Of a DNA stretch of 64,000 nt, positions 48,978-59,346 are shown piece after piece (the first letter of the stretch is position 1; every line of letters begins with the position of its first letter). Source of the DNA: a virus; the IMG/VR virus record IMGVR_UViG_3300032331_002826, positions 10,204 through 74,203 of that record. One strand, written 5' to 3'. Below the pieces are notes generated by a model, which was not told where the DNA came from, searched no databases, and worked only from the letters and a program-made list of their open reading frames with translations. The translations under genes and the position numbers were made by a program.

Positions 48978-49368
48978 TGGTGGACGTGGCGGGATTCGAA
49001 CCCGCGTCTTCAAAAATATATTCTACATCAGACTACACGCTTATGAATTTTTTGACCGCACAACAACCATAATCTAAAATCCCAAACTTATGATTGTTTA
49101 TGTTTGTAAGTTTCAACAACATATCCAAACTATATGTCATCAAGCCTGATAGAGTACACCCAACACAATTATCAGACATCGTTGTATTGGATGTGCAGCA
49201 ACTTAAGCTGCGAGTAGTGCAACGTCTTCTCTCTTAGAAGTGAAGTCGTAGCTGATTACTTTGCTTTTCTTAGCATTTATTTTTTGAACAGATGATTAAA
49301 GAGGCCGACCGTTCATCCTCTGCGTGCCTAACATGAACTAATCTTTGAATCGAGACCAGTACACGCCC
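48978..49368 (-). ncRNA. ssrA: tmRNA
   Basis: Acceptor GGGCGUG/CACGUCC-A-CCA with G3:U; T-arm GCGGG UUCGAAU CCCGC; tag AKKSKVISYDFTSKREDVALLAA-stop at 49274..49203. Confidence 0.95.
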
Positions 49369-50267: not shown

Positions 50268-50400
50268 ATTTAATATCACCAATACATAGTGATAAAAAAT
50301 TGAAAAAAACACAAACCGTGCTATTATACGCTAAAAAGCAATGCGGCACATGCGCCCAAACCCTTACGGAATCCTCCTATCGGGTGTTTGTGTTTTCAAT

Positions 50401-50556
50401 TGGATGACCGTGACTTGCGAATATATGGGGATTTCACGAAAAACGTTCCTAGTATTGAACAGGACATGATCCACTGTTCACCAGTCTATCCCACCAACTT
50501 CAGTCTCTTATACCCTCCCACGGGTATCGTGCATTAATTCTATACACCAACGATCA
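50401..50556 (-). ncRNA. tRNA-like RNA with a large insertion at the T-arm position
   Basis: Acceptor UGAUCGU/ACGGUCA-U-CCA, D-like GUGUA/UGCAC, AUACCC/GGGUAU hairpin, then an insert of about 90 nt. Confidence 0.55.
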
Positions 50557-50561
50557 AATTT

Positions 50562-50918
50562 TTAATCTCCTTTTTGGAGTCGAATACTATCTTCATCAAA
50601 ATGTTGTGTACTGAATTCAAACAACTCAGTGTCTTCAATTGCATACATTTGATGTTTCAGTCCAATTGGAATATGAAAATGGTCACCCTTGTTTAATGCA
50701 ACAGATGTAGACTTATTAATATCATCGTGCCAACCATAATACAATATAATCTTTCCACTTTGGACATAAAATGTTTCATCCTTAATTTTGTGATAGTGCC
50801 AACTACACTTTCGATCCTTCACAAGATAAAGAATCTTGCCACAATACTTTTCATTGTTGACAATCCACTTTTCAAATCCCCATCCCTTCGGTACAATATG
50901 TAATCTTTGGTAATCCAT
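50562..50918 (-). CDS. Cupin-domain protein (sugar isomerase-like)
   Basis: KGWGFE, SWHYHKIKDETFY, IP.G..H. Confidence 0.85.
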   Translation of the reverse strand: MDYQRLHIVPKGWGFEKWIVNNEKYCGKILYLVKDRKCSWHYHKIKDETFYVQSGKIILYYGWHDDINKSTSVALNKGDHFHIPIGLKHQMYAIEDTELFEFSTQHFDEDSIRLQKGD

Positions 50919-50925
50919 AAATTAA

Positions 50926-51213
50926 TTTGACACAGCCGTAGCCGATGTTCTGTTCTATTCCTACATTTATCTCAATATCTCTATTGGTCATCCATTAAAG
51001 ATGACTGCTCCAACCTTGTCCTGATAACGTGCAGCACTACACTCGGACACTTTAGGATTACTGCTAATTTGTGGTGTTAACGAGGGGGACTATCACAATG
51101 AAGTGGTCTTAGCCGATTTGGACTCGGTTTACAATGCCCTCTCCCAATCATCTGCTGTGCAGCATCGAACTTCCTCTAGGATATTATCCCAGCGTAGGAT
51201 CGCTTATGTCAAA
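50926..51213 (-). ncRNA. rnpB: RNase P RNA (catalytic subunit) with a divergent S-domain
   Basis: P1 UUUGACAUA/UGUGUCAAA, P2 UCCUAC/GUAGGA, P3 hairpin, CR-I GAGGAAGUUCGAUG, CR-IV AGAUAAAUG, CR-V ACAGAACAUCGGCUAC; forms P4 with a bulged U. Confidence 0.85.
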
Positions 51214-51235
51214 ATTTCAGTCAGTGTTTGATAAA

Positions 51236-51454
51236 CTATTGCTTTGCAAACAAATGCAGATTCTCTGCTTTCAACGTATCCATTTGTTTTTCTATGACTT
51301 TGCGTTTTGTAACGTCATTTGTTTTCTCCCATTTTACCACAAGCGAACTGTATTGCTTGCGATACTTTTCAATGGTGAGTTTTTTGGTTACGTTGTCTGC
51401 GCCAAATGCATTCAATGCAAGTGTCAATACGATTGTTGCTAGAATTGTTTTCAT
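51236..51454 (-). CDS. Small secreted protein
   Basis: Signal peptide MKTILATIVLTLALNAFG; start moved so it does not overlap the tRNA. Confidence 0.65.
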   Translation of the reverse strand: MKTILATIVLTLALNAFGADNVTKKLTIEKYRKQYSSLVVKWEKTNDVTKRKVIEKQMDTLKAENLHLFAKQ

Positions 51455-51481
51455 ATGTTCAACAATACATATTGATGAAAG

Positions 51482-51557
51482 TGGTCGGAGTGGAGAATTT
51501 CGCAATCTCAACCTCCTGTCTCCAAAACAGGCCGTCTACTTTTGACATTACACTCCG
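51482..51557 (-). tRNA. tRNA-Pro(UGG) with an atypical T-arm
   Basis: CGGAGUG/CACUCCG-A-CCA, loop UUUGGAG, T-loop UGCGAAA. Confidence 0.8.
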
Positions 51558-51565
51558 ATAAAAAT

Positions 51566-58504: not shown

Positions 58505-59346
58505 AAAGTGTTTGGCGTGAGATTACCGCCTTCACTGTTGACCTTCGGTTGTATTATACCCATCTTGCGGACAGGCTTCCCAACTTATCCACGATCACGA
58601 CCTTGCGGCCTATAACCGTATTCAACATGACTGCCTTTTTAGGGTTGTGGCTTTTCAACCTTAATCTAAGACTATTCAACCTTCATCCATCCGTCTGCCT
58701 TGCGAGCAGTTAAGTCTTGCGGACTCCGTTCAGACTCCAATCAACAACTAGTGTCTTGCGGACATTTCGTTGTCTGTGTTACCTTTCGGCCACAGAGTTA
58801 AGTCACTTTCATCTTAGACAAACAACGACTTTGCGTTTTAATATATGAATCGGATTTGCACCGACAACACATAGCGTACAAGGCTATTGCTCTACTGTTG
58901 AGCTATCATGCACCTAACAGTGACGTGCGTTGTTTGTCGTTTCATATCCTTTTGGGATACAATATGCGACACGCCACATGCGTTTCTCTTGCGGATACTT
59001 CACCGATTTTCAAGATTGTGTACTCAGTTGCCCATGTCCACTCTCTATCAATCTACATACGAGCATTTGATTGCGGTCTCACACCCGTATCTTTGGCTTA
59101 AATCTTATTCTTGACTGTTCCACTTGGGAATCAATAGTGCTCGTCGGTATCGTTAGTAGACAACTTACAGTGTTACCCTCAGTCATCATTTATTGATCCA
59201 GCTTCAGACATACTTCCACCTTTTGGATGAAAGTCACAGACTTTGTCAGTTGCTTGAGTGTCCTAGTTACCTAGGCGAGGGTCCGTTAGGGGACATCCTC
59301 TTTCATGAGTATTGCTACTCACTATCTTAAGGGAGTCAAGCCTCCC
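58505..59346 (-). ncRNA. Giant ornate ncRNA (GOLLD-like) with a nested tRNA; boundaries approximate
   Basis: About 840 nt with no minus-strand ORF, six CGCAAG hairpin loops, many stems, inside a tRNA array, upstream sigma70 promoters. Confidence 0.65.
58841..58912 (-). tRNA. tRNA-Thr(UGU)-like module nested in the giant RNA (no CCA)
   Basis: D GCUC/GAGC, anticodon arm AUAGC CUUGUAC GCUAU, T GUCGG UGCAAAU CCGAU, weak acceptor stem. Confidence 0.7.

Follow-up and report, generated by a model that had tools for sequence, protein, structure and literature searches.

What is an RNA resembling RNase P RNA doing among the tRNA genes of a phage? Few ribozymes are universal; RNase P RNA is one of them, and its gene is counted among the core genes of cells. 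The case considered here is a 288-nt stretch (50926-51213, minus strand), with its ends placed at the outer ends of P1, in the window, by which we mean the whole 64-kb stretch of DNA analysed. The window is a fragment of IMGVR_UViG_3300032331_002826, a 74-kb IMG/VR record estimated to be 28% complete; it derives from a real tailed phage, as portal and large terminase genes are present. Freshwater and lake metagenomes from 16 studies contain the stretch 50926-51213. A sequence-only reading had described it as a phage RNase P RNA of only about 290 nt with a remodelled specificity domain (S-domain), and its length is in line with that description.

The surroundings are rich in RNA genes. A search of the whole window with 4227 Rfam models yielded 31 tRNAs or tRNA-like elements, a tmRNA and a GOLLD RNA, all on the minus strand, so that all 31 tRNAs share the strand of the RNase P-like RNA, with the tmRNA and GOLLD less than 8 kb away from it. 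The principal features are:

48978-49368, minus strand: tmRNA (Rfam 133 bits) with the tag peptide AKKSKVISYDFTSKREDVALLAA
50106-63920, minus strand: array of 31 tRNA predictions, of which 30 encode the 3' CCA; trailers A/U-rich, of the AAUUU type
50562-50918, minus strand: cupin-domain ORF (PF07883), an insertion peculiar to the window phage
58514-58977, minus strand: full-length GOLLD RNA (Rfam 203 bits), within the tRNA island

At position -1, 21 of the 31 window tRNAs carry a U. An element resembling tRNA-Thr, without a CCA end, is nested in GOLLD at 58840-58913. Non-canonical T-loops occur in seven of the 31 predictions, this nested element included: UGCAAGU in two tRNAs for Leu, in Gln-CUG and in Thr-GGU, AGCGUUA in Ile-GAU, and AUCGUUA in Lys-UUU.

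Read on the minus strand, the stretch contains AGAGGAAGUUCGAUGC, GAGAUAAAUG and ACAGAACAUCGGCUAC, the CR-I, CR-IV and CR-V strings of RNase P RNA, and it can be resolved into the following elements:

50926-51213, minus strand: whole RNA, from a hand map checked on an alignment of 16 members; nhmmer matches both halves
51202-51213, minus strand: P1 5' strand UUUGACAUAAGC, with its partner GCUGUGUCAAA at 50926-50936; P1 is UUUGACAU(A)AGC/GCUGUGUCAAA
51194-51200, minus strand: P2 5' strand AUCCUAC, with its partner GUAGGAAU at 50957-50964
51176-51192, minus strand: P3 hairpin CUGGGAU-AAU-AUCCUAG, from constrained folding in most members and covariation
51163-51177, minus strand: CR-I AGAGGAAG and P4 5' strand AGU(U)CGAUG with the bulged U; the string UAGAGGAAGUUCG is invariant in all members
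51159-51162, minus strand: P5 5' strand CUGC, with its partner GCAG at 51061-51064; 100% paired, two covarying positions
51153-51155, minus strand: P6 pseudoknot 5' strand GCA, with its partner UGC in the P17 loop at 51034-51036
51141-51150, minus strand: P7 5' strand UGAUU, with its partner AAUUA at 51065-51069; 89% paired, with a one-U overlap with the invariant UGGGAG
51082-51141, minus strand: variable S-domain arm, made of the base helix GAGG/CCUC and an insert of about 50 nt with two hairpins
51070-51081, minus strand: S-domain 3' element GUUAACACCACA (U[A/U]NNA-CC), conserved, with A150, C151, C152 and A153 invariant
51009-51060, minus strand: J5/15 UAA, P15 UCC/GGA, P16 GUCC/GGAC, P17 GUGUA[GUGC]UGCAC and the L15 3' side AAGGUU, from covariation and the Rfam alignment of relatives
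50973-51005, minus strand: two hairpins at the P18 position, GUCAUC-UUUAAUG-GAUGAC and then CAAUA-GAGA-UAUUG (GNRA loop)
50940-50972, minus strand: CR-IV AGAUAAAU, P2 3' strand, CR-V AGAACAGAA and P4 3' strand CAUCGGCU, with invariant columns

The strings of the universal core, namely CR-I (GAGGAA), CR-IV (AGNNNNAU) and CR-V (ACAGAA...GGCUA), appear in the correct order, as AGAGGAAG, AGAUAAAU and ACAGAACAUCGGCUA in the window, and the CR-IV/CR-V region agrees with the Rfam consensus uAGAugAAUG...ACAGAACCCGGCUUA as aligned for L085, a relative from another viral contig. CR-I and CR-V are joined by a P4 helix with a bulged U that is pseudoknotted with P2, and the features of bacterial type A are present in a P15-P16-P17 arm with an internal-loop GGU and a P6 pseudoknot that starts from L17. 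The catalytic domain (C-domain) is complete, comprising P1-P2-P3, the P2/P4 pseudoknot with its bulged U, CR-I/IV/V, P5, the P6 pseudoknot and P15-P17 with the L15 GGU; the earlier statement that P1-P4 and CR-I/IV/V are intact holds for every one of these elements on the minus strand. The L15 GGU, which the sequence-only reading had not been able to discern clearly, is in fact there: AAGGUU lies at 51012-51017, with the P15 3' strand after it. The GGU is conserved in the family in the form GGUU or GGUA, and Rfam places the same GGUAGG (L15) in L085 and in a second relative, L127.

An unusual part of the core is P4, AGU(U)CGAUG/CAUCGGCU, for which compensatory changes had been proposed. Such changes are found: compared in an ungapped register with the sequence of E. 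coli M1, five pairs are changed compensatorily. In an alternative register, in which J3/4 is one A shorter and P4 one pair longer, A67, G68 and the bulged U69 are kept and C70-G357 is replaced by an invariant U-G. Whichever register is chosen, P4 has eight pairs and the bulged U.

Is this RNA recognised by the established models? Rfam returned no RNase P match for the window at the gathering thresholds, and none at E<=10 (4227 families, 50270-51565); it fell short of the RF00010 gathering threshold of 100 bits, a search of its own record with RF00010 found no match, and over 50270-51565 neither RF02357 (type T) at E<=10 nor any model of the RNase P clan matched. However, relatives of the RNA do match. 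L085, which tRNAs flank in a genome of 168 kb that has terminal repeats, scores 191 bits with RF00010 over its full length, in an alignment that covers P1-P12, J11/12, L15 GGGUAGG and P18, and L072, which has the same odd CR-I string as the window and L085, scores 145 bits, again over its full length. Intermediate members range from E 9e-14 to 4e-5. L127 scores 54 bits (E 9e-14), with Rfam aligning the C-domain only and skipping the S-domain; the L056/L094 type, from a complete 365-kb genome, scores 44 bits (E 2.7e-13) and has the S-domain junction strings of the window, save for one Y position; L106 scores 32.6 bits and L055 28.4 bits. The best Rfam match of L134 is to RF00011 (RNaseP_bact_b, type B), at 38.5 bits, and L105 has no Rfam RNase P score, like the window. 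The family as a whole forms a graded series from full type A (191 and 145 bits) through members of 54-28 bits to members without any score.

The two Rfam-verified relatives L085 and L072 also yielded a sequence-only nhmmer profile, which we ran on the 64-kb window. It matches only at 51224-51136 (E 5e-4) and 51027-50934 (E 9e-3), the next match having an E value of 9.8; the two matches are collinear, lie on the minus strand and flank the S-domain. Together with the graded Rfam scores of the relatives, these matches place the window RNA, by sequence homology, in a lineage of RNase P RNA restricted to phages, of which it is a divergent and AU-rich member. The lack of an Rfam match, which the sequence-only reading had named as evidence against itself, is outweighed because of this chain of homology and the covariation described below; on the same two grounds we uphold the description as a phage RNase P RNA with a remodelled S-domain, for which catalysis is predicted from sequence.

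Members of the family were gathered from viral contigs in several ways. In exact scans with a 15- and a 16-mer, both strings were found on one strand in 11 viral-contig loci, 189-346 nt apart; viral loci with a single one of these strings were as frequent as chance predicts, and only two-motif loci were counted. A degenerate scan with UAGAGGAAGUNCGNNGC, filtered for a complementary CR-V, gave at least 30 loci with at least 24 distinct sequences. Among the matches listed, a variant CR-I/P4 with its matching CR-V is present in 30 of about 118 viral loci versus none of the 120 cellular-genome loci that have the CR-I string, a count which, being one of the matches listed, does not prove absence from cells. 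In the GenBank phage collection, blastn found no match to the window RNA and none to L085. The viral contigs that carry the family measure roughly 4 to 365 kb, several of them exceeding 100 kb (the size of jumbo phages), and three are complete according to CheckV (365, 168 and 167 kb). The tRNAs in every family locus lie on the strand of the RNase P RNA, which in 10 of 24 members is separated from a tRNA by 0-11 nt. Reduced members have roughly 237 to 288 nt, and the largest inserts bring the length up to about 480 nt.

Several members have peculiarities of their own. In L006 (10166-10591), L018 and L023, the GNRA hairpin that precedes CR-IV gives way to a second insertion of about 100 nt; in J2/4 of L019, beside CR-V, there is an additional UUCG hairpin; and L134 (11961-12456), with a CR-I to CR-V span of 430 nt the longest member, contains two additional hairpins in a P5.1-like position, between P5 and P7. 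The 167-kb complete genome with the reduced RNase P RNA L105 (6659-6983) encodes a permuted two-piece tmRNA of betaproteobacterial type, which hints at the host group. A conserved non-coding element, homologous to window 50304-50558 or 50308-50394, comes within 1-5 nt after the RNase P RNA in L004, L002, L008 and L014; it may itself be a structured RNA. A near-consensus sigma-70-like site, TTGACA-18-GATAAT (with TG) at 51212-51183 on the minus strand, lies inside P1 and the P3 loop; it is conserved among close relatives only and not in L013 or L019, and we take it as coincidence.

Evidence that the RNA is maintained comes from covariation. Sixteen members were aligned with MAFFT and evaluated on a hand-mapped structure of 74 pairs, with slid 3' partners and 500 shuffles as controls. 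Of all cells, 90.8% pair, compared to 34-46% in the slid controls; both sides change in 50 of the 74 pairs; and the covariation score is 0.429 versus 0.157 for shuffled alignments, with none of the 500 shuffles reaching any observed measure. The support extends to every helix, including P4 and P6. In P1, 10 of 10 pairs vary on both sides and 91% of cells are paired, in P2 both sides change in five of seven pairs (90% paired), in P6 all three pairs vary on both sides (92% paired), P17 is 95% paired with three covarying pairs, and at the P18 position all pairs (6, 3 and 2 per helix) vary on both sides. P4 is paired in 100% of the 16 members, with covarying pairs AU:8/CG:8 and UA:9/CG:4/GC:3, and its two free positions, always compensated, take six forms in related viral contigs: GAUG/CAUC, GGGG/CCCC, GCGG/CCGC, GCCG/CGGC, GGAG/CUCC and GCUG/CAGC. 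By inspection, P5 occurs in the wider family as CUUC/GAAG, CAAC/GUUG, CUCC/GGAG, CAUC/GAUG, CUAC/GUAG and CACC/GGUG, and P6 of L019 is CGACUC/GAGUCG. Constrained single-sequence folds independently recovered P1-P3 and the 3' hairpins in most members. The minimum free energy of the window RNA is unremarkable (z = -0.92), a measure that is uninformative for a pseudoknotted RNA. The fold is kept by compensatory evolution.

The S-domain is a different matter. In type A, it forms a cruciform of P7, P8, P9 and P10/11 together with P12, P13 and P14; here only P7 and a GG/CC contact remain of it, and the domain is reduced to P7, UGGGA opposite U[A/U]NNA-CC, and a variable arm. The window RNA has no canonical CR-II/CR-III, as had been noted before, and likewise no P8/P9, canonical J11/12-J12/13 or P13/P14; the spacer between P5 and GGGAG measures 13 nt and leaves no room for P8/P9. 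After this spacer follow the invariant UGGGAG, the covarying base helix of the arm (100% paired, with three of four pairs covarying in the 16 members), the insert, GUUAAYACCACA and the P7 3' strand. The domain is indeed remodelled, as proposed, but it is not featureless, since the invariant UGGGA and U[A/U]NNA-CC flank the variable arm. The core of the module that docks the tRNA elbow consists of two T-loops with conserved AG..A and UG..A (PMC3664808). Of the 22 non-canonical members, 21 have UGGGA, which fits UG..A, and 21 have the pentamer U[A/U]NNA before CC, which is of the form U..A and not AG..A; L085 has the canonical pentamers AGAGA and UGAUA. Judging by sequence, one canonical-looking and one T-loop-like pentamer survive, which may fold as T-loops.

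The insert behaves like a cassette that is exchanged between near-identical phages. The flanks in the C-domain share 94-100% identity with those of L006 and L008, whereas 51079-51139 is unalignable; L004 has a quite different arm of 90 nt, although the neighbouring ORF91 protein is 98.7% identical. With the shortest arms, hairpins of 13-15 nt in L075 and L139, the whole RNA measures about 237 nt. The window arm (51094-51108, CCGA-GUCCAAA-UCGG) and the L019 arm (CCUGA-GUCCAAA-UCAGG) have the hairpin loop GUCCAAA in common, which other members lack; otherwise the two arms are unrelated. We also considered whether loss of the S-domain tracks odd tRNA elbows, but TTCRA T-loops make up 93% in the group with full, 100% in the group with intermediate and 90% in the group with reduced S-domains. 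With T-loops canonical at 90-100% whatever the S-domain type, the domain was not reduced in adaptation to odd elbows.

A protein partner is not apparent among the phage genes. The earlier observation that no rnpA is visible holds for the 74-kb record, in which RnpA (PF00825) is absent, as it is from the three complete related genomes of 365, 168 and 167 kb; protein-only RNase P (PIN_5/HARP) was likewise not found in the record or these three relatives. Pfam identified only the cupin domain in the flanking ORFs, and these ORFs were rejected as candidate partners, since ORF91 lies beside the RNA in just one relative, L004, and weakly so in L100, and no relative has the cupin ORF there. From the absence of the gene in the phage we infer that RnpA of the host, whichever bacterium that may be, is used. 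As for expression, the cupin ORF but not the RNA is represented in three of the four metatranscriptomes, although these are contigs only, for which lack of cover is not evidence; one contains a 218-nt contig (50940-51157) inside the RNA, with ends and strand unreadable, which could be DNA carry-over and is at most a weak hint of transcription.

Taken together, these data make it likely, as far as sequence can tell, that the element is a functional RNase P RNA, an rnpB homologue derived from bacterial type A, of a tailed freshwater jumbo phage, located in an island of tRNAs, tmRNA and GOLLD. Its role would most likely be the 5' maturation of the 30 CCA-encoding tRNAs of the phage together with host RnpA. 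In the mechanism we propose, the RNA would be transcribed on the tRNA strand, released from the transcript and assembled with the RnpA protein of the host, which is invoked because the phage encodes none. Pre-tRNAs would be bound mainly by contacts to the acceptor stem and leader and by pairing of the L15 GGU with the encoded 3' RCCA, and their 5' leaders would be cleaved at P4. In RNase P RNA, the L15 GGU binds the tRNA 3' RCCA, a J5/15 adenosine reads N-1, and the bulged U of P4 is a metal-binding site. The CCA encoded in 30 of 31 tRNAs and the U at -1 in 21 of 31 are the ligands of the L15 GGU and the J5/15 adenosine, so that enzyme and substrates appear to fit. The two T-loop-like pentamers may constitute a minimal platform for elbow docking, with the variable arm being peripheral. 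The phage would gain its own maturation capacity for about 30 tRNAs, and probably for the tmRNA, during infection. A 2024 review describes C-domains without an S-domain as still active on pre-tRNA, albeit with weaker binding (PMC11143913). Counting against this reading are the missing Rfam match of the window, the weak sign of transcription, and an elbow module that is no longer intact (AG..A and UG..A T-loops, P8/P9, P13/P14), given that in E. coli removal of S-domain residues 94-204 abolished cleavage of pre-tRNA-Tyr (PMC11143913).

Other explanations have to be weighed against this one. That the element is a functionless relic of a captured host rnpB in decay, or a chance resemblance, might be suggested by the missing Rfam match of the window and the truncated S-domain; however, widespread compensatory change in at least 24 distinct sequences, invariant core nucleotides, and the pairing of CR-I/P4 with a matching CR-V in viral as opposed to cellular loci (among the matches listed) make this so improbable as to be negligible, the covariation effectively refuting it. 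A decoy or sponge would need no catalysis: the protein face of the C-domain could capture host RnpA, either starving the host's tRNA maturation or protecting RnpA. P2-P3 and CR-IV/CR-V are regions known to contact the protein, and that they are the most conserved parts would agree with a decoy, as would the absence of RnpA from the phage. Yet a decoy has no need for a bulged U, for the exact geometry of P4 with its six compensated variants, for the P6 pseudoknot or for the L15 GGU, and the full-length, Rfam-typical L085 and L072 occupy the same genomic context, so we hold a decoy to be very unlikely.

Retargeting is a further alternative, according to which a ribozyme derived from RNase P has kept its C-domain, with S-domain and arm now aiming at substrates other than pre-tRNA, be it the tRNA-like elements of the island, tmRNA, GOLLD or host RNAs, in parallel to the divergence of RNase MRP from RNase P. 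The complete replacement of the arm between phages as close as the window phage, L004, L006 and L008, the loss of the canonical elbow module and the presence of several structured non-tRNA RNAs in the island speak for it. So does an E. coli RNA with a deletion in the S-domain, which no longer cleaves pre-tRNA-Tyr but retains cleavage of pre-4.5S RNA (PMC11143913). On the other hand, the elements that read the 3' CCA and N-1, the L15 GGU and the J5/15 adenosines, are conserved here, and the phage tRNAs encode CCA; arms of 13-15 nt exist, which makes the arm look dispensable rather than specificity-bearing; and the tRNA T-loops are canonical irrespective of the S-domain type. Retargeting is therefore unlikely in our view. 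It is doubtful, too, that the hypervariable arm and the UGGGA/U[A/U]NNA core constitute a new substrate-recognition module by which the viral RNase P acts differently from the cellular enzyme. If they did, the RNA might for example work protein-free or with an unrecognised phage protein, or pick phage over host precursors or the tRNA-like RNAs of the island, and it would be a viral device for the takeover of tRNA maturation instead of a spare copy.

Returning to the RNA as a type A-derived RNase P RNA for the tRNAs of the phage, what is new about it? Our literature search, whose coverage is incomplete, yielded no description of an RNase P RNA encoded by a phage or another virus, although an earlier one is possible. 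A survey of huge phages reports tmRNAs and tRNAs and does not mention RNase P RNA (PMC7162821), and the 2024 review of RNase P mentions phage tRNAs as substrates only (PMC11143913). The new points are the existence of a phage-restricted lineage, its tolerance of compensated rewriting of the normally invariant P4 helix, and a natural series leading from full type A to RNAs of about 237 nt with almost no S-domain. This series is a natural experiment on the purpose of the S-domain, as the reduced forms would serve CCA-encoding tRNAs with normal elbows. It also exposes a blind spot of annotation, most members, the window RNA included, being below or wholly outside the Rfam thresholds. The RNA would add to the translational independence of large phages, beside tRNAs, tmRNA and GOLLD, and, being small and having a modular arm, it is an appealing minimal ribozyme for structural studies.

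How does the phage RNA compare to known systems? With bacterial type A (RF00010; E. coli M1, T. maritima) it has in common the order of P1-P4, the P2/P4 pseudoknot, P5, P6-L17, P15-P17 with the L15 GGU, the GNRA hairpin before CR-IV, and nearly identical CR-I, CR-IV and CR-V. It differs in the CR-I/P4 string, GAGGAAGUUCG..G in the phage versus GAGGAAAGUCCGGG, in the invariant U-G pair of the family beside the bulged U and the variable distal P4 pairs, and, in the window RNA, in the lack of P8/P9, of the canonical J11/12 AG..A T-loop and of P13/P14, and in an extra hairpin between P15 and the GNRA hairpin. The type T RNA of Pyrobaculum and relatives (RF02357) is said, following work by Lai and colleagues in 2010, to be small, to keep the C-domain with most of the S-domain lost, and to have escaped standard searches for years. 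It resembles the phage RNA in being a natural RNA with its catalytic domain kept and its S-domain mostly lost that was missed by standard models; however, it is archaeal and works with archaeal proteins, pointing to an independent reduction, and the phage RNA keeps P6 and P15-P17 with the GGU, all of bacterial type, as well as P7 and a small conserved S-core. A functional precedent is provided by engineered bacterial RNAs without an S-domain, in which a C-domain of type A or type B by itself cleaves pre-tRNA at reduced affinity, whether protein is present or not (PMC11143913), but these are laboratory deletions, whereas the phage RNA is natural, under purifying selection, and equipped with two conserved T-loop-like pentamers. 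A natural loss of the J11/12-J12/13 elbow-docking module is likewise seen in mitochondrial RNase P RNAs (PMC3664808), where it accompanies tRNAs without a normal elbow, while 90% of the phage tRNAs keep the canonical TTCRA T-loop. Comparable in setting are the tmRNA and GOLLD of the phage itself, which occupy the same niche and strand of the island; beside them, the RNase P RNA would be a ribozyme whose substrates are products of the island itself.
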